Origin: Desulfobacterales bacterium
Lineage (GTDB): Bacteria > Desulfobacterota > Desulfobacteria > Desulfobacterales > SURF-7
Direction: 5' to 3'
DNA length: 64,000 bases
NCBI GenBank assembly: GCA_041740615.1
Contig: JBGSLR010000026.1
Coordinates: 5,165 to 69,164 of the forward strand
The notes under the pieces were generated by a model. The model had not been told where the DNA came from. It did not search any database and saw only the letters and a list, made by a program, of their open reading frames with translations. Shown here in pieces: positions 13,813 through 59,521 of the stretch. The position numbers were made by a program, and so were the translations under genes. Each line of letters starts with the position of its first letter. The stretch's first letter is position 1.

Positions 13813-13828
13813 TGGCATGGCTATTGCT
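13813..13828 (+). promoter_or_regulatory. sigma-54 (-24/-12) promoter upstream of the split glutamate synthase operon
   Basis: TGGCAT-GGCTA-TTGCT matches the TGGCAC-N5-TTGCW consensus, about 100 nt upstream of the 13932 start. An AT-rich region of about 250 nt (13620-13860) lies upstream. Confidence 0.5.
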
Positions 13829-39095: not shown

Positions 39096-40955
39096 CTAAA
39101 AGCCCGGCAAACCGCTGAACCCGATGAAAGACCAATACAGCCCGGCCATCAGCAACAGCATGATGTTGGCGATAAACCAGAGTGGGATTCCGATTCGGAG
39201 AAAATCCTTGGGCTCCAGATACCCGCTGGCGTATACAATGGCGTTGGGCGGCGTGCCGATGATCAGGCAATACGCAAAGGATGAGGCGATGGCCGTGGAA
39301 ATGGCCATGAACGGGAGGAAGGCGGTTCCCGGATGAGCCAGACCGGCCATGTTGAGGGTAACGGGACCCACGGCGGCGGCGGCCGGACCATCCGCCATCA
39401 AATTCGTAACAACGGCGGTCAGGCAGTTGGAAACAGCCAGCAGTGGAAGTCCGGCATTGATTCCCAACGGGCTGAGTAAATCCATGGCGCTTCTGGCGAT
39501 CCAGTAGGCGGCCCCGGTGGTGTCCAGGACACGCCCGAAGATGATGGCGCCGGCATAAAGCCAGACAACCCCCCAGTCGACTTTTTCCTGATAGTCCCGC
39601 CAGTTGACCACGCCGGCCAGGATATAGGCCACAGCGCCGGCGATGGCGATCACGCCGATGCCCAGTCGAACGGGGAACAGGCCGCTGTCGTAAATCGATT
39701 TTTCCGTAAACCATCCGGTGATCATGACCAGGAAGATGCCCAGGGCCCAGATCTGTTTCTTGTTCCAACCACCCATTTTGCTGATTTCCGTCTCCAGATG
39801 GGCCATGGCCGGCGCCAAGGATCGGATGCTGGGTTTGAAGCGCCAGTTGAGCAACAGCCAGGTCACCGGAATCATGACGACCAGGAACGGCATGCCGTAG
39901 ACCATCCATTGATAATAGCCGATATCCATACCGAACATATCGTTCAGATAGGTCATCATGATGACGTTTCGGGCGCCGCCGGAAGGAGCGCCGGGACCGC
40001 CGATATTACAGGCCATGGCGATGCCGATCATCAATATTTTCCCCAGTTCGGGATCCTCGGGGATTTCACGGGTCAGGCTGTTTTGATACAGCAGCATGCC
40101 GATGGGCAGAAACATGGCCGCCAATGCATGGTCGGAAATGAAGGCGGCCAGAGGAGTGATGACGATGAAAAAGATCAGGGTGATCCATTTGACGTTGGGA
40201 ACGGCGAGTTTTTTGAACATCATCAGGCACACGCGCTTGTCCACTCCGGTTTTCACCAGAGCCGCCGCGAACATGAGGCTGCCCATGATGAACCAGCAGG
40301 CGTCACTCCAATAGAGCCCGGCCACTTCTTCCCGTCCGACTACCCCGGTAAACACCAGAATCAGGCCCACGCAGAAGGCCACACCGGGAAGCGGGATGCA
40401 TTCGGTGAGAAAACAACCCACCACGAATACGGTCATGGCGATGGCCACCTGAATGTGCCAGGCTCCTTTTTCCGCGGCTTTTTTTTCGGCTTCGGGTAAT
40501 TGCTCGAACTTCAAATCGTCCTTGCGCAGTTTCAGAACGGTTTTCATCAGGTCGGTATAGGCCTCATCCGAGACTTGGGTTTCCATATGCTGGTAGGCCT
40601 GCTCAAAATTCTTTTTGACCGCCGGAATGCCTTCCTTGCCGCACCATTTCATATCGCGGGACAGGTAGCGCTTTTTGGACAGCGCTCCCATTTGCAGGTT
40701 GCGTTCCATGATCTTGGCCGTCAGGAGTTGCCACTGTTCGGCGGCGGCGCTTTCCTTCTGAAACAAGGTGGTCGTTATGGCGTTGATGACCGCCTGGGGG
40801 CCGACCTTGTATTCGGTGCCCACATCTTTCATGCTGTCGGGGGTGGGGATCATAAGGATTAGAAAAAAGAGCGCGACCGGAATACTGAAAATTTTCCAGT
40901 CCACATATTTATCGTAGCCCGTGGCTTTCTTGGTTTTTGCTATCGGATGGGTCAT
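39096..40955 (-). CDS. DASS/CitMHS-type (SLC13-like) anion transporter with an N-terminal soluble region of about 170 aa
   Basis: Trimmed to the ATG at 40955 (MTHPIAK), which has AGGAGG 7 nt upstream. There are two permease repeats, with hairpin motifs similar to those of the transporters at 46.8 and 50.5 kb. Confidence 0.75.
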   Translation of the reverse strand: MTHPIAKTKKATGYDKYVDWKIFSIPVALFFLILMIPTPDSMKDVGTEYKVGPQAVINAITTTLFQKESAAAEQWQLLTAKIMERNLQMGALSKKRYLSRDMKWCGKEGIPAVKKNFEQAYQHMETQVSDEAYTDLMKTVLKLRKDDLKFEQLPEAEKKAAEKGAWHIQVAIAMTVFVVGCFLTECIPLPGVAFCVGLILVFTGVVGREEVAGLYWSDACWFIMGSLMFAAALVKTGVDKRVCLMMFKKLAVPNVKWITLIFFIVITPLAAFISDHALAAMFLPIGMLLYQNSLTREIPEDPELGKILMIGIAMACNIGGPGAPSGGARNVIMMTYLNDMFGMDIGYYQWMVYGMPFLVVMIPVTWLLLNWRFKPSIRSLAPAMAHLETEISKMGGWNKKQIWALGIFLVMITGWFTEKSIYDSGLFPVRLGIGVIAIAGAVAYILAGVVNWRDYQEKVDWGVVWLYAGAIIFGRVLDTTGAAYWIARSAMDLLSPLGINAGLPLLAVSNCLTAVVTNLMADGPAAAAVGPVTLNMAGLAHPGTAFLPFMAISTAIASSFAYCLIIGTPPNAIVYASGYLEPKDFLRIGIPLWFIANIMLLLMAGLYWSFIGFSGLPGF

Positions 40956-41117
40956 ATTCTCCTCCTGACGGCTGGTATTCATTGATTCAGGTCAACCGGC
41001 ATTCAAGGCGAGCCGAAAATCGGCAAAACAAAAGTGTCGACGCAGACGGCGCGATCCGCGTTTGAATGCGAATGGGAACGTATCACAACAAAACGGTCAC
41101 TCGTCGATCCGGTGAGA

Positions 41118-41576
41118 TTATTCTTCTCCGGTCGAATCCCGCAGAATCTCCCGGGGGGTCTTCATGAACTTTTTGGACTGCGCCAAGCGGATTTTTTCCT
41201 CCAGACGCATCCGTTTTTCATAGGCTTCTTCCGCCTTCCGTATCAGTTCTTGGATGTCTGCCGGTTTGGTCAGGTAGTCGGTTGCACCGGATTTCAATCC
41301 ATCGATGGCGGATTCCACGGTGGCGTGGCCGGTCAGCATGATGACTTCCACGAGGGGAAACTGGCTTTTGATTTCCTTCAACACCGTATTCCCGCTTTTC
41401 CCAGGCATCTTGACATCGAGGATGACCACATGAACCAGTTGGCTGTTCAGCTGATTCATGGCTTCATCACCGTTGGTGGCCGTAATGACGTGATAGCCTT
41501 TCTTTTCCAGTAATTTTTGCGTTGTCGCGAGGAATCGCTCTTCATCATCGACAAGCATCAGTTTCATCTTGCTCAT
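41118..41576 (-). CDS. single-domain CheY-like response regulator with a C-terminal charged helix
   Basis: LMLVDDEERF..., D54-like LDVKMPG, LTGHA..., and a tail EEAYEKRMRLEEKIRLAQ. It is a paralog of the receiver at 52653..53084. Confidence 0.85.
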   Translation of the reverse strand: MSKMKLMLVDDEERFLATTQKLLEKKGYHVITATNGDEAMNQLNSQLVHVVILDVKMPGKSGNTVLKEIKSQFPLVEVIMLTGHATVESAIDGLKSGATDYLTKPADIQELIRKAEEAYEKRMRLEEKIRLAQSKKFMKTPREILRDSTGEE

Positions 41577-41665
41577 TCCTTCGTTCTCCGTGGTTGAGTG
41601 TTTATAAAGTCTTTGGAATGTTTCGGCGCCGATTCCAAGTTATCTTCTTCTGCCCGTAGTAGGGA

Positions 41666-41680
41666 GCAACCTTCATGCCA
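41666..41680 (-). promoter_or_regulatory. sigma-54 promoter in the histidine kinase / response regulator intergenic region
   Basis: The minus strand reads TGGCAT-GAAGG-TTGCT, about 78 nt before the response regulator ATG at 41576. Confidence 0.5.
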
Positions 41681-41816
41681 AGCCGGGACGTGTCATCATC
41701 ATTGGATAGTATGATAAATTTATAGGTATTTCCGGCGGGGTCCGATGTGATCGGCACCGCCGAGACAGGTTGCCTGTCGAGATTTTTTACAGGATGAAAA
41801 AAAACTAACGATCATG

Positions 41817-43532
41817 TCATTTCTCTTTTTGAGGCGGGAGCGTAATTGTAAATGTCGTTCCGGCGTCTTCCTTGCTGGCGGCCGACAAACTACCCCCCAT
41901 GCCCTGGATGATACCATAGCAAACGGATAAACCCAGGCCCGTCCCTTTGCCCACCGGTTTGGTGGTAAAGAAGGGCGCGAATATTTTTTCAATGTTTTCC
42001 GGACGGATACCGATACCCGAATCCGTGACCGATATTTCGACTTTATGTTCTTTGTTTTGTCCTGCATGGATCGCCAGGGAGCCGCCTTCCGGGTGATTTT
42101 TTTCAATTATGGCATCCATGGCGTTGTTATACAGATTCAGGAGTACTTGCTGTAATTGGCCCGGGTCGGCATACACCCGTGGGGTGTTTTCATGGATATC
42201 CTGGGTGATGCGGATTCCGCTGACAGAGGCTTTTTTTTCGATCATGGCGGTTATTTCCGGAATGAATTCCTGTAACACAATGGTTTGCGGGGCGGGCTCA
42301 CCCTGGCGTCCGAATTTGAGGATCGCCTGGGTGATTTTGGCGCAACGGTTGATTTGCAGCTGGATCTGGTTCAATGAGTCCAGCAGGGTCGAGAGATCCT
42401 CTGAGTCCTTGAGACCTCCGACCTGCCTCATTTCAGCCAGAACCATGTCGATCAGCGCCTTTTCGCTTTTCATGATCTGGAGGGGATTATTGATTTCATG
42501 GGCGAATCCGGCCGCCATTTCACCCAGCTCCGCCAACCGGCTGGCGCCGATCAATTGTTGTTCCAGGAGACCCTTGACGTCCTCCATTTTTTCCATACGC
42601 CGAATGATCCGGCCGGTGACATAAAATCCAAGGGGGATGATGAGCATGCCGCTGACGGCTGAAATCAACAGGCTCAGAAACGATGCCACCCGCAGGGATT
42701 TAAATGCATCCGATTTTTCCTTGCGGACCACTAGAAGCCAATCGTTGGATTTCAACCAGGTGGTTGCGTACAGATATTCATCTCCTTGGCGGTCCTTTTG
42801 AATGAAGGTTTCGATTCCGGAATGAAAGCCCGGGTTTTTTTCATGTTCCGGATCGAGGGTCATGAGGTTTCCCCCGGATCTGCGTTCGGTTTGAAAATAT
42901 CCTTCTTTATTCAGAATATAGGCTTCTCCGGTCTTGCCGATACGAACCCGTTCCACGAAATCCGTGAAAATATGACTATCGATGGTCGACCGCAACACCC
43001 ATTTTTGTTTTCCGTCATTTTTCAGGACGGCGATGATGAAATGGGGTTCCTTTCGATATCCAAGGAAAACATCGCTGATATACCAACCCTCTTTCATCAC
43101 TTCTTTGAACCACGTGGCGTCGCTGTAAACTTTCCCACCGAGCTGGTGCGGTCCCCAGTAGGCGACGTGGACCCCGTTTTCATCGAAAAGGCCGATGTCG
43201 GCAAAGGCCGGGGATTTGCGCTGCAAATCAACGATAACCTGATAGAGTTGATCCGGCTGTCGCAGTTTTTCCACCGGATAGGCGTTCAGCACCCAGGCAA
43301 GATCGGTTTTACGCTCGTCCAGGAAAAACTCGATCATCTGGCGATGGTCTTCCACGATTCGCTTCATGCTTTCAATGGTCTTATTTTCGATGGAGGAGTA
43401 GAAAAAATATCCGCCGCTGACCATAACAAGCAAAAACGGGAAAAAGGGAATCACAATCATGCTGACCAGCAACATGCGTCGTAACGGACGGTAGGGATCG
43501 CTCGCACGATTGATTTCGGTTTGATCGGCCAT
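41817..43532 (-). CDS. sensor histidine kinase with a periplasmic Cache/PDC-type domain (HisKA + HATPase_c)
   Basis: TM1, an extracytoplasmic domain of about 250 aa (…[12 protein letters not shown]…), then TM2. It has an H-box (AHEINNPLQ) and N/G1/G2 boxes. Confidence 0.85.
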
Positions 43533-43562
43533 AATGCTGCTCCTTCCGGTTGTGTTGTGATT

Positions 43563-45056
43563 TCAGTCGGATGGTTCCGAGCTGTTATCCTTATGCCCGG
43601 TGGTGCCTTTCCATCGGGATGTTCGATTTTCGTGAATCTCATATATCGTTCCGCCGACACCGTCCGGCACTTCTTCTATCTTCCAGTATGTATCGCGGAC
43701 AGCCTTCAACGGCTCCACGATTTTGGAGAAGGCGATTTTCATCTCGTCGAGACAAGCGACCATTTCCTGCTTGTCGATCACGCCGGAATCCAGAAATTCC
43801 CGTAGCTGAGAAATATTGAGGGACATGACCATCAACGGTGTGTTGATTTGATCGCTCAACCCGCCGGCCATCTTTTTGACGGATTCCAGTTTCTGCATCT
43901 CCAATGTCTGGGTGACATTATGGACGATGCCGTGATAGGAAAAAATGCGCCCCGTCATATCCCTTTCGGCGACGACGGTAATCACCACATCGATTCGTTT
44001 CCCATCGCCAATCCGCCATTTGGCCACCTGCTGGGTGCATCCCCTAGCCGTCTCGCAGTTTTTCAGGAGCAGATCTCTTTGTTTCGGATTGACATAAAAA
44101 TCCAGGATCTTCTTTTTTCGGAAGCCTTCCTCCAAGCCGAGCAATTTGACGCCGGCGGGATTGAGATCCAAAAAGTTACCTTCGTAATCAACCCGGTAGA
44201 TCATGTCCGTACTGTTGTGGATGATACTTGCCAGTTTCGTCCTTTCCGCTCCCAGTTCAAATTCACGCTTTTTCTGTTCGGTGGTGTCCACGATGGTATG
44301 ATCGATCCGGCGGGGCATGCCGTGACCTCGTTCCACGAACAGGACATTCCCGGTATCCCGAACCCATTTGGGCGTTTTGTCCTTGCCGATCACGATGTAT
44401 TCCATGCTTTCGTTTTCAAGAACATCCGGAAATGCCATGTAAAATGCGGTCACTCGTTCCAGATATTCCGGATGGACGAAGTCGAACCAATGCCTTCTGC
44501 CGCTTTTGATATCCTTCACCGAACAGCCGATCATGGCCTCCACATGGCGATTGACCGACAAGATGTCTCTGCAATCATAGGGAGCAAATGAGAGAAGAAC
44601 GCTTTCCGTATCGTCCAGAAGGCTTTTCATGCGACGGTTTTCACGTTGAAGCGTTTGAAAACGTTCCAGATGCACGGTGATATCCGTTATGCAGCAGCAG
44701 AGACCCCGGGATTTCGAACAGACCCCTTGGAGGTGGATGGGCATGGTCTTCATCACCACATCCCGGCCGGCGTTTTTACTCCTGTGAATGCGAAAAACCA
44801 CCTCGTCTCCCGTTGTCTCCTGGATCTTTTGGAGATAGGATGCGATCCGGGGGCGGTCCAGGTCGGCAATGAGATCCAGAAACAAATGACCGATCATTTC
44901 TCCCCGGTTTTTTCCGGCGATATCACACAGTGCTCCATTGGCGTAAATGACCATGCCCTCCGAGAGTATGGCGATCCCTTGGCTGATGCTCGACAAAACC
45001 TGTCGATACGGTACGGGATTGGTTTCGGCGACACACGTTTCAGAGGGTTTATTCAT
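43563..45056 (-). CDS. PAS-PAS protein ending in a degenerate DHp-like helix pair (no phospho-acceptor His, no ATPase domain)
   Basis: At least two PAS folds. The C-terminal GLSDQINTPLMVMSLNISQL aligns to the H-box [10 protein letters not shown] with His replaced by Asp, and the protein then ends. The start was moved to the ATG at 45056, because a sigma-54 promoter lies inside the longer ORF. Confidence 0.6.
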   Translation of the reverse strand: MNKPSETCVAETNPVPYRQVLSSISQGIAILSEGMVIYANGALCDIAGKNRGEMIGHLFLDLIADLDRPRIASYLQKIQETTGDEVVFRIHRSKNAGRDVVMKTMPIHLQGVCSKSRGLCCCITDITVHLERFQTLQRENRRMKSLLDDTESVLLSFAPYDCRDILSVNRHVEAMIGCSVKDIKSGRRHWFDFVHPEYLERVTAFYMAFPDVLENESMEYIVIGKDKTPKWVRDTGNVLFVERGHGMPRRIDHTIVDTTEQKKREFELGAERTKLASIIHNSTDMIYRVDYEGNFLDLNPAGVKLLGLEEGFRKKKILDFYVNPKQRDLLLKNCETARGCTQQVAKWRIGDGKRIDVVITVVAERDMTGRIFSYHGIVHNVTQTLEMQKLESVKKMAGGLSDQINTPLMVMSLNISQLREFLDSGVIDKQEMVACLDEMKIAFSKIVEPLKAVRDTYWKIEEVPDGVGGTIYEIHENRTSRWKGTTGHKDNSSEPSD

Positions 45057-45165
45057 CGCTTTTCGCTTGCGCTTCCTTTCATGGATTGTATCCGCTGCCA
45101 CCGGAATCGATGCGTCCCTCAACCGTTGTGGAAGCTCGGATTCTCGGTATTGAACTATTCGAAAA

Positions 45166-45180
45166 GCAACCCCTGTGCCA
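45166..45180 (-). promoter_or_regulatory. sigma-54 promoter (perfect TGGCAC-N5-TTGC) for the PAS / Cache-kinase / response-regulator operon
   Basis: The minus strand reads TGGCAC-AGGGG-TTGCT. Confidence 0.55.
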
Positions 45181-45244
45181 ATATGATTCACCGGCCCAAA
45201 TCAGTTGCGTTAGAGGTGTTGATTTATAAGATCCTGTAGATCAA

Positions 45245-45260
45245 AAGGCATGATATTTGC
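45245..45260 (+). promoter_or_regulatory. sigma-54 promoter for the divergent tandem-Usp gene
   Basis: AGGCAT-GATAT-TTGCT, about 80 nt upstream of the ATG at 45352. Confidence 0.4.
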
Positions 45261-45351
45261 TGTGCATAGGGGGAGAAAGGGTCGAAGTCGAGACGCATTG
45301 ATCCGCCATGTTTTTATTTCGATGCAGTGAAAACCGAATGAGGGGGAATTT

Positions 45352-46284
45352 ATGAAAAAACAGGGAAGCATATTGGTGGCCATCGACGGTTCCATGCAAT
45401 CCATTCATGCGGCAAAGTACATCAGCAGAATCTGCTCGTTGAAAAAACCTCGCATCGTGTTGATGCATGTTGGAAGGCCTGTGCCGGAGGCCTTCCTCGA
45501 CTTGCGCTCCACACCGGGGTTCGGCCGTCAGGTCATCAAGGCCAGCGCTTGGAACATCCAGCAGAAAAAAAATATTCAGGATTGCATGGCCAAAATTCAG
45601 GAGATTTTTTACAGGGACGGATACCCGAAAGGAAATATTGAGGTAAAGATTCAAAAACAACGCCTGGGGATTGCGAGGGATATTATACAGGAAGCCCAAA
45701 ACGACTATAACGCGGTTGTCGTGGGGCGCAGCGGCATCAGCAAGTTGAAGGATGTGTTGCTCGGGAGCATCGCCTATAAACTCGCGGATCAGATCCAACA
45801 AATTCCCATCGTGGTTGTCGGGGGCAATCCGTCGCCTGAAAAGGTACTGATCGCCTTTGACGGCTCAAAAGACGCATACCGCGGGGTGGACTGCGTGCGA
45901 AAGTTGATGGTTCAAGAGGAGCGGGAAGTGCTTCTGTGTCACGTCATCCGATCTCTGAATATCTATCTGGACGCCAATACGTTTTTCAATGAGGAGCAAG
46001 AAGACATGTGGCTGGCGAGCCGGCGTGAAGAAGTGGAAAAGGAATTCGTCAAAGCCGAGGCGCGTCTTCAAAAAGGCGGTTTCACGCCTGAACGGCTTTC
46101 TCATATCACCCTGGAGAACGAAGCATCGCGCGCCATCGCCATTCAGGACATCGCTCGTGAAAAAGGATACGGTTCCATTGTGTTGGGCCGCCGCGGGCTG
46201 ACGAGTGTGGAGGAGTTTTTGATGGGTCGCGTGAGCCGGAAAGTGCTGCACCTGGCGAAGAAACAGGCCGTATGGATCGTATGA
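45352..46284 (+). CDS. tandem universal stress protein (UspA x2)
   Basis: 310 aa with two Usp halves (VVGRSGISKLKDVLLGSIAYKL and IVLGRRGLTSVEEFLMGRVSRKV). Confidence 0.8.
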   Translation: MKKQGSILVAIDGSMQSIHAAKYISRICSLKKPRIVLMHVGRPVPEAFLDLRSTPGFGRQVIKASAWNIQQKKNIQDCMAKIQEIFYRDGYPKGNIEVKIQKQRLGIARDIIQEAQNDYNAVVVGRSGISKLKDVLLGSIAYKLADQIQQIPIVVVGGNPSPEKVLIAFDGSKDAYRGVDCVRKLMVQEEREVLLCHVIRSLNIYLDANTFFNEEQEDMWLASRREEVEKEFVKAEARLQKGGFTPERLSHITLENEASRAIAIQDIAREKGYGSIVLGRRGLTSVEEFLMGRVSRKVLHLAKKQAVWIV

Positions 46285-46305: not shown

Positions 46306-46332
46306 GGCGGCCCATCGGTTATGATGGGCCGC
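46306..46332. terminator. hairpin between the convergent usp and response-regulator genes (candidate bidirectional terminator)
   Basis: GGCGGCCCATC, loop GGTTAT, then GATGGGCCGC. There is no strong U-tract. Confidence 0.35.
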
Positions 46333-46341
46333 TTCCATCCA

Positions 46342-46782
46342 TTAGATATTGCCGCCTCTTCTCAGCAACAGTTTGGCTTCCGCCTGGCGGATGCGCTCGT
46401 CCTGCTCATCCTTGCGTTTTCTGGCGGCCTCCAGTTTCGTGGACAGGTCCGAAAAGTCGGCCGGCTTCAGCAGATAATCAAAGGCGCCCAATTTCATGCC
46501 CTGAACCGCCGTCTCGGTGCTGCCGTGACCGGTGAGCAGGATGACTTCCACCAGTGGGAACCGCTTCTTGATTTCCTTCAGGGTGTCGATGCCGTCCATG
46601 CCCGGCATCTTGATATCCAGGATGACAACATCCACCGGCTGTTTCGACAGCAAATCCAGGCACCCCTTTCCACTGTCGGCGATTGAAACCTGTTCGCCGC
46701 TTTCCGTGAGTCGCAGGGAAAGCAATTCGGCAAAATCCTGTTCATCGTCGACGAGCAATACGCGTGTCGGTATTCTGATCAT
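46342..46782 (-). CDS. single-domain CheY-like response regulator (copy A)
   Basis: Only the 3' 441 nt of the ORF 46342..47256 is used: MIRIPTRVLLVDDE... About 85 % identical to the receiver at 48925..49365. Confidence 0.85.
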   Translation of the reverse strand: MIRIPTRVLLVDDEQDFAELLSLRLTESGEQVSIADSGKGCLDLLSKQPVDVVILDIKMPGMDGIDTLKEIKKRFPLVEVILLTGHGSTETAVQGMKLGAFDYLLKPADFSDLSTKLEAARKRKDEQDERIRQAEAKLLLRRGGNI

Positions 46783-46805
46783 TTTATCTTCTCCTTCCCT
46801 CATAT

Positions 46806-48383
46806 TTAAACCAGTCCCAGAATTTTCCACCACACGCCGGCCACGACGACCAGAATGGTGAGCAATATCGGTGTGGCCACCAGTCCCGCCTTGGTAAGAT
46901 CCGAGGCCTTGAAATACCGATAGCTGTAAGCAATGGCGTTGGGAGGACAGCCGATCACCAAAATCATGGCGAAGGACGTGGCCATGCCGAGGCACAGGGC
47001 CAGAATGGTGGGATTGACCCCTTCCAGTTGGGCCATGGGGATGACGATGGGCAGAATCAGAGCCGCCGCTGCCACATTGGCCATGACATTGGTTACCAGG
47101 GCCCCGAAAACGCCCACGCCTACGAACAGGACCAGCCATCCGCCACCCTTGATCAGCGGGAAAAAGAGGTTGGCGAAGTAATCCGCGGCGCCGGTGGAGC
47201 CCATGGCCAGGCCCATGGCCAGGCCGCCGCCGAAGATGAACAGGGCGGTGCCCCATTCCAGGTTCTCATTGATATCCTCCCATTTCAAAACGCCGAACAG
47301 CACTAACGCAGCAACCCCCAGCATACCGGTAACGGAGTAATCCAGTCCGTGAATTCCCTTGGTCAACCAGAACAGGAACGAGATGCCCGTGATGACCAGG
47401 GTTTTGATTTCCAGGTTTGTCCAGGGACCGATGCTTTCCTCGAACAGGGGCAGCTTTTTGGAAGTATCCGGTCGATAGAGCATATAGACGACGCTGATCG
47501 CCGCCGGCATGGTCAATAGGGCGGCCGGCAGGGCGTATTTGGTCCAGTTGAAAAAATCCAGCTCCATGCCGGTGTATTCCTTGAGGAAAGCGGCCGACAC
47601 CATGCAACGTCCGCCGCCGATCAGGGTTCCCATGCCGCCGCAGGAGCAGGCAAAGGCAAGGGACAACAACATGAAGCGGGCTGTGTTGGTATGGGGTTCG
47701 ATACCGGAGGCGCGCATGAGGGGCAGCATGATGGCGATGCCGATGGCGCAGGCGGCGGCATCGTGCATGACCGTGGAAGCGAGGCCGAGCCCCAGACAAA
47801 GAATAAAGGTGAAACGAGTAACGCTGGAGCCGGCCTTCTTTACGATAAAGTAGCCCAGTCGTTTGGTCATGCCGGCCTTGTCCAGGGAGATGGCGAAGAT
47901 CAGGCAGCACATGATGAAGACCACTACCGGGTGCATATACGCCGCCCAGACATCCTTGACGTCTCCAATGCCGAAGCCCACCAGTGAAACGCCGATGCAG
48001 ATGGCTGTAATTTCGAGGGGAATGGGCTCCACCACAAACAGGAAGATCAACACTGCCAGGATGGCGAGGAACCGTTTTGCCTTGGGAGGAAGACCGTCGA
48101 CATATCCGATGGTTGTCTTTTCCAGGCGGAGTGTTTTGGCCCGATCCGTCAGAAATTGGGCAGCGTCTTCGGGCTGGCCCGGGGTTTTGATTTCAAGGAA
48201 ATATTGATTTTCGGTTTTTTTGTCGGTCTCGAAAAGTTGAAACTGTGCTTTTACATCCTCTAACAGCCGTCGATCGTTATCGCCGTTGATTTTAAACCGG
48301 GTTCCCTCCGGACGCGGCAACAACATGACAACAAGTCCAAGCAAAATGCCCACCCCAAGCTTGAATCCGTTTGATTTCCACAT
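46806..48383 (-). CDS. DASS/CitMHS-type anion transporter (copy A)
   Basis: 525 aa. About 90 % nucleotide identity to 50549..52126 over long stretches. GGAGGA lies 9 nt upstream. Confidence 0.8.
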   Translation of the reverse strand: MWKSNGFKLGVGILLGLVVMLLPRPEGTRFKINGDNDRRLLEDVKAQFQLFETDKKTENQYFLEIKTPGQPEDAAQFLTDRAKTLRLEKTTIGYVDGLPPKAKRFLAILAVLIFLFVVEPIPLEITAICIGVSLVGFGIGDVKDVWAAYMHPVVVFIMCCLIFAISLDKAGMTKRLGYFIVKKAGSSVTRFTFILCLGLGLASTVMHDAAACAIGIAIMLPLMRASGIEPHTNTARFMLLSLAFACSCGGMGTLIGGGRCMVSAAFLKEYTGMELDFFNWTKYALPAALLTMPAAISVVYMLYRPDTSKKLPLFEESIGPWTNLEIKTLVITGISFLFWLTKGIHGLDYSVTGMLGVAALVLFGVLKWEDINENLEWGTALFIFGGGLAMGLAMGSTGAADYFANLFFPLIKGGGWLVLFVGVGVFGALVTNVMANVAAAALILPIVIPMAQLEGVNPTILALCLGMATSFAMILVIGCPPNAIAYSYRYFKASDLTKAGLVATPILLTILVVVAGVWWKILGLV

Positions 48384-48557: not shown

Positions 48558-48587
48558 AACAAACTGATTGCGTACGGCTCCAATCGA

Positions 48588-48602
48588 GCAACCTCCATGC
48601 CA
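48588..48602 (-). promoter_or_regulatory. sigma-54 promoter for transporter copy A and the response regulator
   Basis: The minus strand reads TGGCAT-GGAGG-TTGCT. Confidence 0.5.
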
Positions 48603-48924
48603 ACTATTTATTCCATATGTTGTCACCTAACATGGAGCAATCAGAACAAAAGCAAACAGAGACGTGGATGACTGTAAAAAAAAGAAATGGCCCCCTGTCA
48701 GAACTTTTTACAGGTTGTAAAAAACATATTCTGCTGATGGAAGAAACTGGGGGTATACGGAAGCTGCATTGGACAGAGATCGAATACGGACATATTTTTA
48801 CCACGAAGGACACAAAGAAATGTTCTTACGTTCCGGCACGGCAGAAATAACTTTGTGTTCTTCGTGATCAACGAAGCGAGTGGTGGTATACGCATCGCCA
48901 AAGGTTTTTTATCATTCGTTGGTA

Positions 48925-49365
48925 CTAAACATCTCCACTTCTTCGCATCAGCAGTTTGGCTTCGGCTTTTCGGATGCGTTCTTCCTGTTCATCCTTGCGC
49001 AGTCTTGCGGCTTCGAGTTTTGTCGACAAATCCGAAAAGTCCGCCGGTTTCAGGAGGTAATCAAAGGCGCCGAGCTTCATTCCCTGAACCGCCGTCTCGG
49101 TGCTGCCGTGCCCGGTGAGCAGAATGACTTCAACCAGCGGGAACTGCTTTTTGATTTCTTTCAGGGTGTCGATGCCGTCCATGCCCGGCATCTTGATATC
49201 CAGGAGGACCACATCCACCAGCTTTTCTGTCAGCCGGTCCAGGCATTCCTTTCCGCTGTGGGCGGTCAATACCTGCTCGCCGCTATCCGTGAGCCGCAGG
49301 GACATGATTTCAACAAAATCCGTTTCGTCATCGACGAGCAAAACGCGTGTGGGTATTCTGATCAT
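48925..49365 (-). CDS. single-domain CheY-like response regulator (copy B)
   Basis: 146 aa. Paralog of 46342..46782. Confidence 0.85.
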   Translation of the reverse strand: MIRIPTRVLLVDDETDFVEIMSLRLTDSGEQVLTAHSGKECLDRLTEKLVDVVLLDIKMPGMDGIDTLKEIKKQFPLVEVILLTGHGSTETAVQGMKLGAFDYLLKPADFSDLSTKLEAARLRKDEQEERIRKAEAKLLMRRSGDV

Positions 49366-49413
49366 ATCGTATTCTCCTTACCTTTCTGGTACAGAAATTC
49401 GTTCCATCGTAAC

Positions 49414-50544
49414 TCATCCATCTCGCCGGTTGGGGATGCTCACCGAAAAGCAGGCTCCTTTTCCGATGCCGCTTTCCAGCCGAATGTTTCCCTGCAGGCG
49501 TTGCACAATGCCCCGCACGATAAAAAGGCCGAGGCCCGTCCCCTTTCCCGGGGGCTTGGTGGTGAAAAAGGGTTCGAATATTTTTTCCTGATGTTCTTTG
49601 GGGATGCCGCCGCCGGTATCCGAGATCCGAAACAGAATTTGTTGTCCTTCTTCCTGGACCTGTACGGTGACAACGGCGTTTTCTTCACTGGCATGGACGG
49701 CGTTGGTCAACAGGTTGAGGAGCACCTGTCTCAATTGAAACGGATCGCTCCAGAAGATTTTCAGATGATCGGGAAGGTTGGTGGCGATCCGGATGTGTTT
49801 GACGGCCGTCTCCTTTTCCACCAGTCGGATGATATCCGCAATGAATTCGGAAAGGTCGATTTCCGACAGGGAAAGGGGTGTTTCCCGAACCACCCCCAAA
49901 AGCTGGTGGGTGATCCGGCGTGCCCGGTCCACGGCCGTTTCAATTTTTTCAAGGGCTTTTTCAATGTCGGCTTTGCGTTCGATTCCGCCTTCCCTGCTTT
50001 TACCGAGGATCTGGCGCATCCAACCCGCTGCTTCGTTGATGATCGCAAGGGGGTTGTTGATTTCATGGGCAATACCGGCCGCGAGGGTTCCCAGGGATGC
50101 CAGACGCTTGTTGGCGATGATCTGACGTTCCATGGCTTCCCGCAGTTCCGCTTCCCGCAGTTTATCCTTTTCCCGTTGGATCTTGTCATGCGCCTGGATG
50201 ATCTTGCTTTCCAGATGATCGATCTCGACGGGCTTGGTCAGATAGTCGAAAGCGCCGGCCTTGATGCCGTCGACACCGTCCTGGGGGGATGCATGACCGG
50301 TCAGGAGGATGGTCTCGATCTTCGGAAAACGCTCCCGAATGCGTCCCAGTAGATCGAGACCGCTCATCCCCGGCATTTTGACATCCGACACCACGACATC
50401 CACGGGCTGTTTTTCCAGGATGTCCAGGCCGGCGGCGCCGCTGGTGGCCAGGAGCGCCTCCATACCTCTCTTTTTCAGTCGTTTGGCGATGGCCTCGATA
50501 AAATAGAGTTCATCGTCCACGAGCAGCAGGCGAATGGGTTCCAC
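49414..50544 (-). CDS. hybrid histidine kinase: N-terminal receiver followed by HisKA + HATPase_c, with no sensor domain
   Basis: Receiver (LLVDDE..DVKMPG..LTGHA), H-box [11 protein letters not shown] and G boxes. It starts 4 nt after the stop of transporter B. Confidence 0.85.
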   Translation of the reverse strand: MEPIRLLLVDDELYFIEAIAKRLKKRGMEALLATSGAAGLDILEKQPVDVVVSDVKMPGMSGLDLLGRIRERFPKIETILLTGHASPQDGVDGIKAGAFDYLTKPVEIDHLESKIIQAHDKIQREKDKLREAELREAMERQIIANKRLASLGTLAAGIAHEINNPLAIINEAAGWMRQILGKSREGGIERKADIEKALEKIETAVDRARRITHQLLGVVRETPLSLSEIDLSEFIADIIRLVEKETAVKHIRIATNLPDHLKIFWSDPFQLRQVLLNLLTNAVHASEENAVVTVQVQEEGQQILFRISDTGGGIPKEHQEKIFEPFFTTKPPGKGTGLGLFIVRGIVQRLQGNIRLESGIGKGACFSVSIPNRRDG

Positions 50545-50548
50545 GTTT

Positions 50549-52126
50549 TTACACCAGTCCTAATATTTTCCACCATATTCCGGCGACGGCCACGAGAATT
50601 GTCAGCAATATCGGTGTCGCAACCAAACCGGCTTTTGTCAAGTCCGAAGCTTTGAAATACCGATAACTATAGGCGATTGCGTTGGGCGGGCAGCCGATCA
50701 CCAGCAGCATGGCAAAGGAGGTGGCCATTCCCAGACACAGGGCCAGAATGGTGGGATTGACCCCTTCCAGTTGGGCCATGGGGATGACGATGGGCAGAAT
50801 CAAGGCCGCCGCGGCCACGTTGGCCATGACATTGGTCACTAGTGCGCCGAAGACGCCCACGCCCACGAACAGGACCAGCCAGCCGCCGCCTTTGATCAGC
50901 GGGAAAAAGAGGTTGGCGAAATAACCCGCCGCCCCGGTGGAGCCCATGGCCAGTCCCAAGGCCAGCCCCCCTCCGAAGATAAACAAGGCCGTGCCCCATT
51001 CCAGGTTTTCGTTGATGTCCTCCCATTTCAAGACGCCGAACAATACCAATGCGGCGACTCCCAGCATGCCGGGCACGGAATAGTCCAGGCCGTGAATTCC
51101 CTTGGTCAACCAGAACAGGAAAGTGATGCCGGTGATGACCATGGTTTTGATTTCCACTGACGTCCAGGGACCGATGCTTTCATCGAATTCAGGTAATTTT
51201 ATAGCGGGATCCGGCCGGAAGAGAAGATATACCACGCCCACGGCCGCCGGCATGGTCAACAGGGCGGCCGGCATGGCGTATTTGGACCAGCTGAAAAAAT
51301 CCAGTTCCATACCCGTGAATTCCTTTAAAAAAGCAGCTGACACCATGCAGCGGCCGCCGCCGATGAGGGTGCCCATGCCCCCGCAGGAACAGGCGAAAGC
51401 AAGGGAGAGCAGCATGAAACGGGCCGTATTGGTGTTGGGTTCGATGCCGGAGGCGCGCATGAGGGGCAGCATGATGGCGATGCCGATGGCGCAGGCGGCG
51501 GCGTCGTGCATCACCATGGAGCCCGTTCCCAGACCCAGGGCCAGAACAAATGTGAAACGGGTGACATTGGTGCCGGCCTTACGGACGATAAAGTATCCCA
51601 GTCGTTTGGTCATGCCGGCCTTGTCCAGGGAGATGGCGAAGATCAGGCAGCACATGATGAAGACCACCACCGGATGCATATAAGCCGCCCAGACATCCTT
51701 GACGTCGCCGATGCCGAAGCCCACCAGGGCAACACCGATGCAGATGGCTGTAATTTCAAGGGGGATGGGCTCCACCACGAACAGGACGACCAGCACGGCC
51801 AGGATGGCCAGAAACCGTTTGGCCTTTGGCGGCAGTCCATCCACATAGCCGACGGTTACCTGCTCCAACCCCAGGGATTTCGCCCGATCCTGTAGAAACC
51901 GGGCGTTATTATCCGGTTGGTCCGGGATTTTGATTTCAAGAGTATAGCCGGTCTCGGACTTTTTTTCAGAGGCGGCAAGTTGGAACTGCGCGCCAACATC
52001 CGCCAAGAGCAGGCGTCCCGGATCTCCGCTGATGGTGAATTGGGTCCCTTCCGGACGCGGCAGCAGCATGATGACAACGCCCAGCAGAATCGCTACACCA
52101 AGTTTAAAACCTTTTGATTGCAACAT
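50549..52126 (-). CDS. DASS/CitMHS-type anion transporter (copy B)
   Basis: Trimmed to MLQSKGFKLGV (ATG at 52126), with an RBS AAGGAG. At 525 aa it is the same length as copy A. Confidence 0.8.
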   Translation of the reverse strand: MLQSKGFKLGVAILLGVVIMLLPRPEGTQFTISGDPGRLLLADVGAQFQLAASEKKSETGYTLEIKIPDQPDNNARFLQDRAKSLGLEQVTVGYVDGLPPKAKRFLAILAVLVVLFVVEPIPLEITAICIGVALVGFGIGDVKDVWAAYMHPVVVFIMCCLIFAISLDKAGMTKRLGYFIVRKAGTNVTRFTFVLALGLGTGSMVMHDAAACAIGIAIMLPLMRASGIEPNTNTARFMLLSLAFACSCGGMGTLIGGGRCMVSAAFLKEFTGMELDFFSWSKYAMPAALLTMPAAVGVVYLLFRPDPAIKLPEFDESIGPWTSVEIKTMVITGITFLFWLTKGIHGLDYSVPGMLGVAALVLFGVLKWEDINENLEWGTALFIFGGGLALGLAMGSTGAAGYFANLFFPLIKGGGWLVLFVGVGVFGALVTNVMANVAAAALILPIVIPMAQLEGVNPTILALCLGMATSFAMLLVIGCPPNAIAYSYRYFKASDLTKAGLVATPILLTILVAVAGIWWKILGLV

Positions 52127-52233
52127 CTTATAATCTCCTTTTCCACGGACGACAGGCCTTCCGCAGCGCAAACGGGTACCCTTTCGGGCGGAACAGCATT
52201 CGCCGGCATTACATCCGATTGCCGGATTCCGTG

Positions 52234-56248: not shown

Positions 56249-56335
56249 GGTTCTTCTCCTGACGGAACGATTTTGTACGAGTTTTGCTTGCTATGCAGGT
56301 TAGCATGGCCGGCAATCGATTTTACATGAATATTG

Positions 56336-56350
56336 GCAATGAACATGCCA
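56336..56350 (-). promoter_or_regulatory. sigma-54 promoter for the binding-protein / response-regulator / kinase / transporter operon
   Basis: The minus strand reads TGGCAT-GTTCA-TTGCC. The sequence is a near-palindrome, and the minus-strand reading is the better match. Confidence 0.5.
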
Positions 56351-56446
56351 GGGTGTCGGTGGAACACAGTTTTTGGATAACTATCTGTTATGATGTTATT
56401 TTTATATTATATAGCTCGCCGAATTTATCCACCGTCCGGTTTCGAA

Positions 56447-56496
56447 TGTCGGTTTTTTTTACGGACATCCGTTGGGGGTGTCGGCTTTTTTTACAG
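56447..56496. repeat. two direct repeats TGTCGG-Y-T7/8-AC-RG, 32 nt apart; candidate activator (UAS) sites
   Basis: TGTCGGTTTTTTTTACGG (56447-64) and TGTCGGCTTTTTTTACAG (56479-96). A third TGTCGG lies at 56354. They sit about 100-150 nt upstream of the minus-strand sigma-54 promoter. Confidence 0.4.
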
Positions 56497-56610
56497 TGGA
56501 CAACAGCGCGCCGGCTCAATACAATGGAATGTGGATTTTTTGTCATCATTACCATGCATCCGAAATCGTTATTGCGGTGTTTTCGGATCAACCATGAAAG
56601 AAAAAAGCCC

Positions 56611-58080
56611 ATGTTTCAAAAAGTAAGCCTCCGGTTGCGACTGTTTTTATTGATAACGGCGCTGGCGTTGCTGAATCTTCTCGGTTCCCTGGGAACGGTC
56701 TGGTATACGTATCGAACGCAGAGCCTTTATGCGGCTGTACTGGATCAGGACGTGTCCGCGCTGACGGCCGCGCAGAAAATGGAAACCGAGTTGATCATGC
56801 AGAAAGGGTTGACCAGCTATTTTTTCCTGACCAACGACGAAAAATGGCTTGCACAACTGCTTGAGCGGACGCGGAATTTTAAACATTGGCTGACCGTTGC
56901 GCGGGAGATGAACAACATCGAGGAAGCCAGGGGGATCCTGAATGAAATCGAATCCCGCTTCATCCAGTATGGATTCGATCGGGATAATGTGATTGCGCTG
57001 TATAAGGGAGGTAAACGAAAAGAAGGGGAAAATCTGCACTGGAAGGTCCGTGACCAGTTTTTCGCCATTTTTGATCTGGCTGAAAAATTCAAGACGGCCC
57101 ATGAACGTCAGATTGCGGATCTGCAGAGAAAATTTCGGCGATCCAGCTCGAAAATGGCGGTATTCGCCTGGGCCGCCATCCCATGCGTACTGATTATCAG
57201 TATCCTGCTCACCGCCATCATTTTACGGCAGATCTTGAGTCCCATCCGCCGACTGGCCATGGGAAAGGAAGGCCCGAAAAGACCCATCGGCGACGAAGTC
57301 CAAGCGGTGAAAAACCGCCTGGACGATCTGGTGGAGAATATCGGGCAAACCCAGGCGAAACTGATGGAAAGTCAGGCCCATCTTATTCAGTCAGAAAAAC
57401 TTGCCATGGTGGGGAAGCTCGCGGCCGGTGTGGCGCACAGCGTCCGGAATCCATTGACTTCCGTTAAAATGAGACTGTTCACATTGGAACGCAGCCTGCA
57501 GCTGACGCCGCCCCAGAAAGAGGACCTGGATGTCATTTCCGAGGAAATCCGGCATATCGATACCATCCTCAGAAATTTTCTTGAGTATTCGCGGCCGCCC
57601 AAACTGAAAATGCACACGGCCAGTCCTTCCGATGTAGTGGATATGACCTTGCAACTGTTGCGGCATCGTTTCGATTCCTACCGCACGGAAGTCCAGGTAA
57701 TAAGAACCGGGAGATTGCCCGAGATACCCATCGATACGGATCAATTGAAAGAAGTGCTGGTCAATCTGATGGTGAATGCCTGTGAGGCCATGGGGGAAGG
57801 CGGGACAATTCAGATCCAGGAAGAAACCGGCCTGCGGGAGAATATAGGAGAAGTTGCGCTGATTGAAGTCCATGACAATGGCCCGGGAATACCGGCGGCG
57901 CTTGTGGATAAGATTTTTCAGCCTTTTTTCAGCTCCAAGGAGGAAGGTTCGGGACTGGGACTCAGCATCGCAAGGCGGATAATTGAAGAGCACGGCGGCG
58001 AAATCAACGCGAAGCCCGATGAAGGCATCGGGGCCACCTTTGTCATCTCGCTGCCCCTGAAGGAGGAGATCCATGGCTAA
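56611..58080 (+). CDS. sensor histidine kinase (two transmembrane segments, helical periplasmic sensor, HisKA + HATPase_c), partner of the sigma-54 activator
   Basis: Trimmed to MFQKVSLRLRLFLL. H-box AHSVRNPL, and G boxes DNGPGIP and GSGLGL. Confidence 0.85.
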   Translation: MFQKVSLRLRLFLLITALALLNLLGSLGTVWYTYRTQSLYAAVLDQDVSALTAAQKMETELIMQKGLTSYFFLTNDEKWLAQLLERTRNFKHWLTVAREMNNIEEARGILNEIESRFIQYGFDRDNVIALYKGGKRKEGENLHWKVRDQFFAIFDLAEKFKTAHERQIADLQRKFRRSSSKMAVFAWAAIPCVLIISILLTAIILRQILSPIRRLAMGKEGPKRPIGDEVQAVKNRLDDLVENIGQTQAKLMESQAHLIQSEKLAMVGKLAAGVAHSVRNPLTSVKMRLFTLERSLQLTPPQKEDLDVISEEIRHIDTILRNFLEYSRPPKLKMHTASPSDVVDMTLQLLRHRFDSYRTEVQVIRTGRLPEIPIDTDQLKEVLVNLMVNACEAMGEGGTIQIQEETGLRENIGEVALIEVHDNGPGIPAALVDKIFQPFFSSKEEGSGLGLSIARRIIEEHGGEINAKPDEGIGATFVISLPLKEEIHG

Positions 58081-59521
58081 AATTCTGATTGTCGATGACG
58101 ACCCCCAACTGCGGCAGAGTTTCCAGAAGATCCTGTCAAGCGAAGGGCATACCCTGTTGACGGCCAATTCCGGGGAAGCCGGCATCGCCGTGGTCAAGGA
58201 GAACCAGCCGGACTTGGTGGTCATGGACGTGCGCATGCCGGGCATGAGCGGCCTGGAGGCCTTTGAAATGATGCATCAGCTCCATCCCAAGATGCCGGTC
58301 ATCATCATGACAGCTTACGGCACCACGGAAACCGCCATCGAGGCCACCAAAATGGGCGCATTTGATTACGTGCTCAAACCGTTCGAAATCCCGGACATTC
58401 TTGATCTCATCGAAAGAGCCCTTCAGGCCGGGCGTTTCATGCGGTCCCAGGTCACGGTAAACGCCCCGGCCAAATCCGTGATCCAGGATGCCATCGTAGG
58501 CCAGAGCGCTCCCATGCAGGAGGTGTACAAAGCCATCGGCCGCGCCGCTCCCACCGACGCCACGATTCTCATCCGCGGGGAATCCGGAACCGGCAAAGAA
58601 CTGGTGGCCCGTGCGATCTATCAGCACAGCCTGAGAGCCGACCAGCCGTTTCTGGTGATCAACTGTGTGGCGATACCCGAAACACTGTTGGAAAGTGAAT
58701 TGTTCGGTTATGAAAAAGGCGCCTTTACCGGCGCGGTGAACAGGCGGGTGGGCAAAATCGAGCAGGCCAACAACGGCACGGTTTTTCTGGATGAGATCGG
58801 CGACATGCCCTATAATATCCAAGCCAAGATTCTTCGCTTGCTGCAGGAGAAAAGTATTGAACGATTGGGAGGCCGGCAACCGATTCCCGTGGATGTCCGC
58901 ATCATCGCCGCCACCAATCGCGATCTGGAGGCGGCCGTTACGGAAGGGCGGTTCCGGGAAGATTTGTATTACCGCCTGAAAGTCGTCAGTCTGAATCTGC
59001 CGCCCTTGAGAGAACGACCGGAGGATCTGCCGTTGCTGATCGATTATTTCCTGCAGAAATTCAGTCGGGAGATGAATGTCACCGATCCCGGCAGATCGGA
59101 TGCCGCCTTGCACGCCTTGCGTCGGCATGCATGGCCGGGAAATGTTCGGGAACTGGCCAATACCATCCAGAAAGCGCTGATTTTCAGCCAGGGGGCGCCG
59201 TTTACAGAGGACGATATCATCCGTTCGATGGATGCCCATCACGGGCACCGGAAAGCATCCCGGGCCTCCGCTGCGGAAGGGTTTGAGTCCGGGTTGAGAG
59301 AGTGGGTGCACCAGATGCTCGTGTCAGCGGGCGAGGAAAACCTGTTCGACAGCATTATGGACTATTTCGGCGGTATCGTCACCCGTGAGGCCCTGAATAT
59401 CACCGAGGGAAATCGCACCCAGGCGGCAAAAATACTAGGGCTTTCCCGGCCGACCCTGTTGGCCCGCATTGAACGCTATGGCTTGAAAATCCAGACCGGT
59501 GTGAAGGGACCGGATGAGTGA
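58073..59521 (+). CDS. sigma-54-dependent Fis-family response regulator (NtrC/AtoC-like enhancer-binding protein)
   Basis: Receiver, AAA+ (GESGTGKE, GAFTGA, ESELFGYEKGAFTG) and a C-terminal HTH. It overlaps the kinase gene by 8 nt. Confidence 0.9.
   Translation: MAKILIVDDDPQLRQSFQKILSSEGHTLLTANSGEAGIAVVKENQPDLVVMDVRMPGMSGLEAFEMMHQLHPKMPVIIMTAYGTTETAIEATKMGAFDYVLKPFEIPDILDLIERALQAGRFMRSQVTVNAPAKSVIQDAIVGQSAPMQEVYKAIGRAAPTDATILIRGESGTGKELVARAIYQHSLRADQPFLVINCVAIPETLLESELFGYEKGAFTGAVNRRVGKIEQANNGTVFLDEIGDMPYNIQAKILRLLQEKSIERLGGRQPIPVDVRIIAATNRDLEAAVTEGRFREDLYYRLKVVSLNLPPLRERPEDLPLLIDYFLQKFSREMNVTDPGRSDAALHALRRHAWPGNVRELANTIQKALIFSQGAPFTEDDIIRSMDAHHGHRKASRASAAEGFESGLREWVHQMLVSAGEENLFDSIMDYFGGIVTREALNITEGNRTQAAKILGLSRPTLLARIERYGLKIQTGVKGPDE

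Follow-up and report, generated by a model that had tools for sequence, protein, structure and literature searches.

In the usual picture of two-component signalling, bifunctional kinases both phosphorylate and dephosphorylate their response regulators. In HisKA kinases, an acidic residue directly after the phospho-acceptor His (His+1) is needed for the kinase activity only, and a Thr or Asn at His+4 for the phosphatase activity only (PMC3510030). The isolated dimerisation and histidine phosphotransfer (DHp) domain of HK853 binds BeF3-RR468 and acts as a phosphatase, in which T264 and H260 hold the catalytic water (PMC5727384). Furthermore, mutants of the phospho-acceptor His of HisKA kinases lose phosphotransfer and keep the phosphatase activity, as stated in PMC7005713. 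In this study, we analyzed a gene on the minus strand of a 64,000-nucleotide stretch of contig JBGSLR010000026.1 from a Desulfobacterales bacterium (hereafter the window, to which all coordinates refer). The gene encodes a cytoplasmic three-PAS sensor, here called the PAS protein, which has a DHp with Asp in place of His and has no ATPase domain; it is a histidine pseudokinase or a transmitter-phosphatase-like module. Our preferred reading, to which we give a probability of about 35%, is that the protein is a PAS-gated, receiver-directed pseudo-transmitter acting as a dedicated phosphatase.

Several described systems can be compared with the PAS protein and its family. The nearest relatives of the C-terminus are the PAS-HisKA kinases of the 'GGIAHEINTPL' type (P0074, P0075, and P0077; solved relative LvrB, 8vc9), which share the order PAS, signalling helix, and helices alpha1 and alpha2 together with the motif xGGxx[H/D]xINTPL. 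These kinases, however, have His-Glu and a full HATPase_c, whereas the family members carry Asp-Lys/Gln instead and finish with a 19-aa beta-hairpin. The HK853 DHp (PMC5727384) and the E/DxxT/N motif (PMC3510030) provide the example of a CA-less DHp, that is, one without the catalytic and ATP-binding (CA) domain, that binds and dephosphorylates a receiver, and the His+4 Thr is conserved here as Thr406. Such isolated DHp phosphatases are engineered fragments of bifunctional kinases and retain the His, whereas the PAS family is a natural CA-less and His-less form, with Asp, a +1 residue that is basic or neutral, and the added beta-hairpin. DivL of Caulobacter crescentus (PMC4211667; 4q20) is likewise a multi-PAS, soluble-type protein that uses a non-His DHp as a regulator-binding surface and not for phosphotransfer. 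In contrast to the family, DivL has Tyr and not Asp, keeps a CA-like domain, is membrane-anchored and alphaproteobacterial, and has no detectable sequence relationship beyond generic DHp. RetS, RocA, FasB/FasC, and ChrS_CA-fs are catalytically incompetent or dispensable kinase-like proteins that contact a bona fide kinase, and FasB and FasC are co-encoded, as are the PAS gene and the dCache kinase gene next to it. They nevertheless retain a CA-like domain, the His, or both, and have a genetically fixed partner, whereas the kinase neighbour of the family is not conserved. NifL, the anti-activator of the sigma-54 activator NifA, with the layout PAS-PAS-H domain-GHKL, is similar in its cytoplasmic multi-PAS form, its non-phosphorylating DHp-like H domain, and its link to sigma-54; however, it acts via a nucleotide-binding GHKL domain, which is absent here, and the PAS gene has no adjacent NifA-like partner.

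Measured against the features of these classes, the PAS protein has the DHp hairpin of a HisKA-type kinase but neither the phospho-acceptor His nor HATPase_c. It has the Thr/Asn at His+4 of the transmitter phosphatase motif E/DxxT/N but not the acidic residue at His+1. It shows the catalytic loss under selection of a histidine pseudokinase of the DivL/RocA type but not the CA-like domain. A Spo0B- or HPt-type phosphotransferase was also considered and rejected, because the bundle carries no phosphorylatable His and has Asp there.

The minus-strand open reading frame (ORF) at 43563..45191(-), which gives 542 aa from its long start, was confirmed in the sequence. We reassigned the start to the ATG at 45056, and the coding sequence 43563..45056(-) then comprises 497 aa and the stop codon. 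A preliminary description of this DNA, made from its letters, had proposed PAS folds and the lack of a catalytic ATPase domain. Indeed, Pfam found three PAS regions and no HATPase_c match in the protein, nor was HATPase_c found in any orthologue. PAS domain 1 (aa ~17-126; 44679..45008(-)) was recognized by Pfam PAS_8, PAS_9, and PAS_4, by AlphaFold, and by its invariant columns. PAS domain 2 (aa ~156-258; 44283..44591(-)) was recognized by PAS_3 and by AlphaFold, with low confidence in its N-terminal cap, and PAS domain 3 (aa ~282-381; 43914..44213(-)) by Pfam PAS (E 2.8e-17), TIGR00229, and AlphaFold. They are followed by a signalling helix and DHp-like helical hairpin (aa 382-457; alpha1 382-424, loop, alpha2 429-457; 43686..43913(-)), delineated by AlphaFold, hhalign, and the selection analysis below. 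The degenerate H-box GGLSDQINTPLM (aa 398-409; 43830..43865(-)) lies in alpha1, with Asp402 (codon 43851-43853) at the His site and Thr406 at His+4. Finally, the conserved C-terminal beta-hairpin WKIEEVPDGVGGTIYEIHE (aa 458-476; 43629..43685(-)), with AlphaFold strands at 458-464 and 470-476 and near-invariant columns, is followed by a variable tail, and the protein terminates 95 aa beyond Asp402.

Two of the PAS domains carry invariant residues of other kinds. An invariant Cys-Cys pair, C120/C121 (codons 44691-44696), is found in the final strand of PAS1, and PAS2 carries invariant C178, H189, and H253 (497-aa numbering). In sequence terms, these residues hint at a redox-active or a metal/heme-type cofactor.

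The homology of the C-terminus to DHp domains was examined with several profiles. At aa 439-466 in long-ORF numbering, Pfam HisKA matched below its threshold, with 20.9 bits (cut-off 26.9) and an E of 3.7e-4. The true kinase encoded next to the gene (41817..43532) likewise scored low, with 21.1 bits; accordingly, the low HisKA score reflects the kinase subfamily and not the absence of the domain. When the profile of 37 family C-termini (A2) was aligned by hhalign with six true DHp+CA regions, an E of 3.9e-5 was obtained and the Asp fell on the His. An exhaustive HMMER profile search over 1.84 billion representative proteins returned the family, then a sister clade, and then solely true kinases carrying 'MAGGIAHEINTPL' (the 'GGIAHEINTPL' type). 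These kinases aligned at profile positions ~8-80, which correspond to the signalling helix and both DHp helices. At the column where the family and the sister clade have Asp, all 41 true kinases (41/41) have His, and the proposed replacement of the phospho-acceptor His by Asp was thereby borne out.

An AlphaFold model of the C-terminus had been suggested as a check on the DHp fold. With the family alignment, AlphaFold gave PAS3, a continuous helix (382-424) containing Asp402, a loop, a second helix (429-457), and the hairpin 458-464/470-476; the helical hairpin is compatible with a DHp, and the beta-hairpin comes in addition. The best Foldseek matches of this C-terminal model in the PDB were kinase DHp domains (LvrB, HK853, VC2136, and DivL), none of them at E <= 1e-3. 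When the C-terminal profile was compared with PDB sequences, kinases (LvrB and DesK) appeared at E 0.18-0.35, below designed helical repeat proteins, which is not significant alone. The DHp homology was thus confirmed mainly by the sequence profiles, with which the predicted fold agrees. The preliminary description was right that the C-terminus resembles HisKA, but its placement in the last 60 aa or so has to be shifted to aa 382-457, which the 19-aa hairpin and the variable tail follow. Among the NCBIfam models, the generic PAS model TIGR00229 alone passed for the protein; kinase equivalogs (EspA, AtoS, NblS, and WalK) matched the part from PAS to alpha1, far under their cut-offs. No model in Pfam or NCBIfam covers the C-terminus of the family, and none gives it a name.

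The PAS protein belongs to a conserved, unnamed family and is not a product of decay. The family comprises ~57 clusters of 460-500 aa with 40-78% identity and a common architecture, and the precomputed domains contain HATPase_c in none of them. The members come mostly from Desulfobacterales and are annotated only as 'PAS domain S-box protein'; the named sources are Desulfosarcina, Desulfococcus, Desulfatitalea, Desulfatiglandaceae, Desulfobacula, and similar ones. The motif LSD.I[NA][TS]PLM was found in all 53 distinct family C-termini, with the Asp in 53/53, and GGLSDQINTPLM is the most conserved 12-mer across the whole protein. Asp0, Ile+2, Asn+3, Thr+4, Pro+5, Leu+6, and Met+7 are invariant or nearly so. 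At His+4, 36 of the 37 sequences have Thr and one has Ser, whereas His+1 is Lys, Arg, or Gln and never acidic. Along alpha1, a hydrophobic stripe runs at +2, +6, +9, and +13, and a polar stripe on one face consists of Asp0, Asn+3, Thr+4, Thr+8 (31/37), and Asn+12 (36/37). The strongest constraint falls on the solvent-facing residues of the H-box (Asp, Asn, and Thr), which correspond to the active site of the ancestral kinase, beyond the hydrophobic core alone. Furthermore, the ratio of nonsynonymous to synonymous substitution rates (dN/dS) against the closest relative (locus L005) was 0.10 overall, 0.05 for the signalling helix and DHp, and 0.03 for the hairpin, values that are qualitative with dS near saturation. 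The DHp domain is therefore under purifying selection.

The beta-hairpin, with the family consensus W.IEEV.DG.GGTIYEI over 19 aa, sits where kinases have the CA domain. It is common to the family and the sister clade and absent from true kinases. Its derivation from a CA domain, as a remnant of the G1 box or of the last hairpin, was examined and found unsupported (hhalign E 0.41, probability 0.1%). In the sister clade (P0069-P0072; loci L027 and L029), the H-box reads 'GCFADDLASPL', with Asp both at the His site and at +1 and Ser at +4; the insert between alpha1 and alpha2 is longer, and the same terminal hairpin appears as YW.L.KV.DG.GG.IYER. One member of this clade has CBS domains ahead of the PAS domains, and one has a Na+/H+ exchanger gene next downstream.

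Subsequently, the promoter and the start codon were examined. An exact match to the sigma-54 (-24/-12) consensus TGGCAC-N5-TTGCT, TGGCACaggggTTGCT (45165..45180(-)), lies within the long ORF, as the preliminary description had noticed. It is the sole exact match in the window, in which 0.04 would be expected, and it predicts a transcription start near 45154, ~98 nt 5' of the ATG at 45056. An exact element, TGGCACgagggTTGCT, also precedes the 78%-identical orthologue in L005, where the distance from promoter to ATG is 122 nt, compared with 124 nt in the window. Among the upstream regions of 23 orthologous genes, the exact promoter was found only in this closest relative; the Desulfosarcina ovata orthologue has a possible upstream sigma-54 site with two mismatches. 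The sigma-54 control is therefore specific to this lineage. A strong 10-bp G+C-rich hairpin, GCGGCCCATC...GATGGGCCGC (46307..46332(-)), lies just past the receiver gene 46342-46800; its T-run is weak. It probably terminates the upstream DASS-receiver operon, and the promoter at 45165..45180 would therefore open a new transcription unit. A shared enhancer site was sought upstream of this promoter and none was found, and an Rfam scan of 41500..45400, which includes the ~98-nt leader, gave no match at E <= 1.

As the promoter is internal to the long ORF, a transcript from ~45154 could not encode the GTG at 45191. The alignment of 26 orthologues (40-78% identity) starts at the Met of the ATG at 45056. 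In L005, no in-frame ATG, GTG, or TTG occurs between its ATG and the upstream stop codon, and three further orthologues have a stop codon 2-6 codons 5' of the start. The proposal that translation really starts at 45056 accords with these comparisons, by which this ATG is the best-supported start. The public gene call for the exact protein (P0001) has 519 aa and starts at TTG 45122; this start is compatible with the position of the promoter but receives no support from the orthologues. Both the 519-aa call and the 542-aa ORF are probably too long. A Shine-Dalgarno-like AAGGAAG lies 15 nt from the ATG at 45056, which is unusually far, and the corresponding distance in L005 is 17 nt.

Downstream, 30 nt past the stop codon of the PAS gene, lies the gene for a dCache_1 - HisKA - HATPase_c sensor kinase by Pfam (41817..43532(-)), referred to here as the Cache kinase, which is preceded by the ribosome-binding site GGAAGGAG. 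A terminator-like site was sought in the 30-nt gap and none was found, and the two genes probably form one operon, as judged from the DNA. The suggested co-transcription with the Cache kinase is therefore plausible in this lineage, but the pairing does not extend beyond the closest relative: the adjacency is kept only in L005. At ~22 other distinct loci, the contexts were unrelated and no conserved kinase or regulator neighbour of the PAS gene was found; six orthologues examined individually and species-representative loci likewise had unrelated neighbourhoods. Two-component genes occur within 6 kb in L011, L012, L013, L017, L022, and L023, with varying architecture and orientation, and were treated as background in genomes rich in such genes. 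When the pseudo-DHp profile was compared with the four kinases of the window, the scores were 17.1 bits (the REC-kinase at 49414), 11.9, 10.2, and 8.8 bits, the lowest being that of the Cache kinase. In hhalign, only alpha1 of the pseudo-DHp aligned with the Cache kinase, with 25% identity.

In the preferred reading, the protein is soluble and kinase-dead, and its three cytoplasmic PAS domains would drive a homodimeric DHp-like four-helix bundle via the continuous signalling helix. The bundle would be incapable of autophosphorylation (no CA) and of accepting phosphate (Asp for His) but would have kept the receiver-facing face of alpha1, by which it would dock on a response regulator's receiver domain. 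A hydrolytic water may then be positioned by Asp402 and Thr406, which are separated by one helical turn, and the protein would be a dedicated phosphatase gated by its PAS domains. Such a pair recalls CheZ and the HisKA_3 kinases, with their acid-plus-amide pairs, as an analogy only. In the simplest circuit for this genome, the Cache kinase might phosphorylate a receiver on an external ligand, and the co-expressed PAS protein might remove or read the receiver phosphate on an internal signal, the gene pair itself being induced through sigma-54. Made with the dCache kinase from one sigma-54 promoter, the PAS protein could therefore set the phosphorylation level of the kinase's regulator. A candidate for this receiver is the single-domain response regulator at 41118..41576(-), which consists of the receiver only (Pfam Response_reg E 1.2e-28). 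Dimerisation, receiver docking, catalysis, and the identity of the substrate are all inferred here, as is every functional statement.

We favored a receiver-directed pseudo-transmitter because the kinase-specific features (His, the acidic +1 residue, and CA) have been lost and the phosphatase-specific Thr has been kept. The constraint on the exposed H-box residues is more readily reconciled with a surface that faces a receiver than with one that serves dimerisation only, and the orphan state of most orthologues fits a partner encoded in trans and not a cognate neighbour kinase. Positions +8, +11, and +15 are those changed to rewire the HK853-RR468 specificity (title of PDB entry 4jau). Several points weigh against a dedicated phosphatase. 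The HK853 DHp is a weaker phosphatase when it carries H260A (PMC5727384), and the CA domain with bound nucleotide stimulates the phosphatase of EnvZ and HK853 (PMC7005713), whereas the PAS protein has no CA. No candidate receiver is conserved beside the gene in the loci surveyed, and the same pattern of conservation would be expected of a protein that binds a phosphorylated receiver without catalysis.

Such a binder, comparable to DivL, would use the Asp pseudo-DHp to hold a regulator, probably in its phosphorylated form, and would sequester it or use the PAS domains to relay its state back to a further protein such as the dCache kinase. It would draw on the same conserved receiver-facing surface as the phosphatase, and an acidic residue at the His site could touch the active-site Mg2+ or Lys of the receiver without turnover. 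DivL, which has Tyr for His and several PAS domains, senses phospho-DivK through its kinase-like output domain to control CckA (PMC4211667), and its structure (4q20) is among the Foldseek matches of the DHp. DivL, however, retains the CA-like domain that the family lacks, and the retained Thr/Ser at His+4, the position specific to the phosphatase (PMC3510030), is more simply explained by catalysis; we regard binding without catalysis as rather unlikely. The preliminary description had instead proposed that the protein heterodimerises with the Cache kinase or titrates it. The pseudo-DHp would then join or bind the DHp of the Cache kinase, and the half-dead dimers would inhibit or modulate the kinase according to PAS input. 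RetS acts on GacS by breaking up its DHp dimer (PMC8498467); FasB and FasC, which are co-encoded, form a heterodimer (PMC12675982); CA-less ChrS heterodimerises with HrrS (PMC9491836); and RocA binds CovS (PMC7028121). These precedents, together with the terminator-free gap and the retention of both the gene pair and the sigma-54 promoter in the 78% relative, make the proposal possible in this lineage. As the mechanism of the family it is not supported: the adjacency is confined to one shallow lineage, that kinase DHp of the window's four which resembles the pseudo-DHp profile least belongs to the Cache kinase, and dimerisation needs no invariance of an exposed H-box Asp, Asn, and Thr. Moreover, paralogous DHp domains are normally insulated from heterodimerisation. 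Overall, modulation of the kinase appears improbable to us, and the probable target of the PAS protein is a response regulator and not the adjoining kinase.

An output outside two-component signalling is doubtful as well. The helical hairpin would then be an inherited dimerisation scaffold, and the beta-hairpin or the PAS domains would bind another target, as in NifL-NifA. The beta-hairpin, with no counterpart in true kinases, is indeed conserved like the H-box and has a dN/dS of 0.03, most members are orphans in metabolic neighbourhoods, and the fold matches of the full-length protein include the NifL-NifA complex (9qq6); but the most conserved part of the protein, an H-box with a phosphatase-type Thr, would be left unexplained, and the GHKL domain through which NifL works is missing. 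The loss of the His and the CA domain and the HisKA match under the Pfam threshold would also be seen if the gene were the decaying relic of a truncated histidine kinase or an artefact of annotation. This is highly improbable: the ~57 clusters are uniform in length and architecture at 40-78% identity, the Asp is invariant, dN/dS is low, and a sister clade has the same design. A pseudogene was effectively refuted by this conservation and dN/dS.

If the preferred reading of a receiver-directed pseudo-transmitter is true, the half of a transmitter that serves as phosphatase or reads the receiver can become a protein in its own right, under separate regulation. It would add a class of auxiliary regulators hidden by the current annotation, and would provide a clean natural system for asking which H-box residues suffice for phosphatase chemistry. 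A wider proposal would be an undescribed class of stand-alone DHp modules, gated by PAS (CBS/PAS in the sister clade), with an invariant Asp and a beta-hairpin in place of the ATPase, which would serve as orphan phosphatases or phospho-receiver readers across Desulfobacterales and whose Asp/Thr pair would represent a novel form of catalysis that converges with CheZ and HisKA_3; this is possible, although we put it on the doubtful side.

The gene lies in a signalling island of the window, which contains two dCache kinases, a REC-kinase, four single-domain receivers, three DASS-type transporters, universal stress proteins, a REC-CBS protein, and a pair of a kinase and an NtrC-type sigma-54 activator at 56284..59521. 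For this genome, the preferred reading suggests that this sigma-54-controlled island, with its dCache kinases, single-domain receivers, DASS transporters, and stress proteins, integrates an intracellular PAS signal and extracellular Cache signals. A module of a DASS/CitMHS-type transporter and a single-domain receiver occurs three times (39096-41576, 46342-48383, and 48925-52171), always on the minus strand and with varying gene order; in the third, the two genes flank one for a REC-HisKA-HATPase_c kinase. The three modules and the two dCache kinases suggest paralogous transport-control circuits.

Further sigma-54-type promoters, each with one mismatch, were found at 41665..41680(-), preceding a single-domain receiver and a DASS transporter, and at 48587..48602(-), preceding another minus-strand operon. 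Palindromes of the form CCTGT-N11-ACAGG, of which none would be expected in shuffles, lie ~95-110 nt upstream of these two promoters, at 41773-41793 and 48694-48714, respectively. From their sequence and position, they look like shared enhancer sites of one activator, for which the NtrC-type protein at 58073-59521(+) is a candidate. The palindrome was not present upstream of the promoter of the PAS gene and the Cache kinase. Another one-mismatch sigma-54-type element, TGGCATggctaTTGCT at 13813-13828(+), lies ~100 nt upstream of the ORF 13932-15062(+). Among the database proteins, P0067 (230 aa) combines a QueC-like N-terminus with the last ~70 residues of the pseudo-DHp family (the end of alpha1, alpha2, and the hairpin), and is probably a misassembly or gene-fusion artefact.

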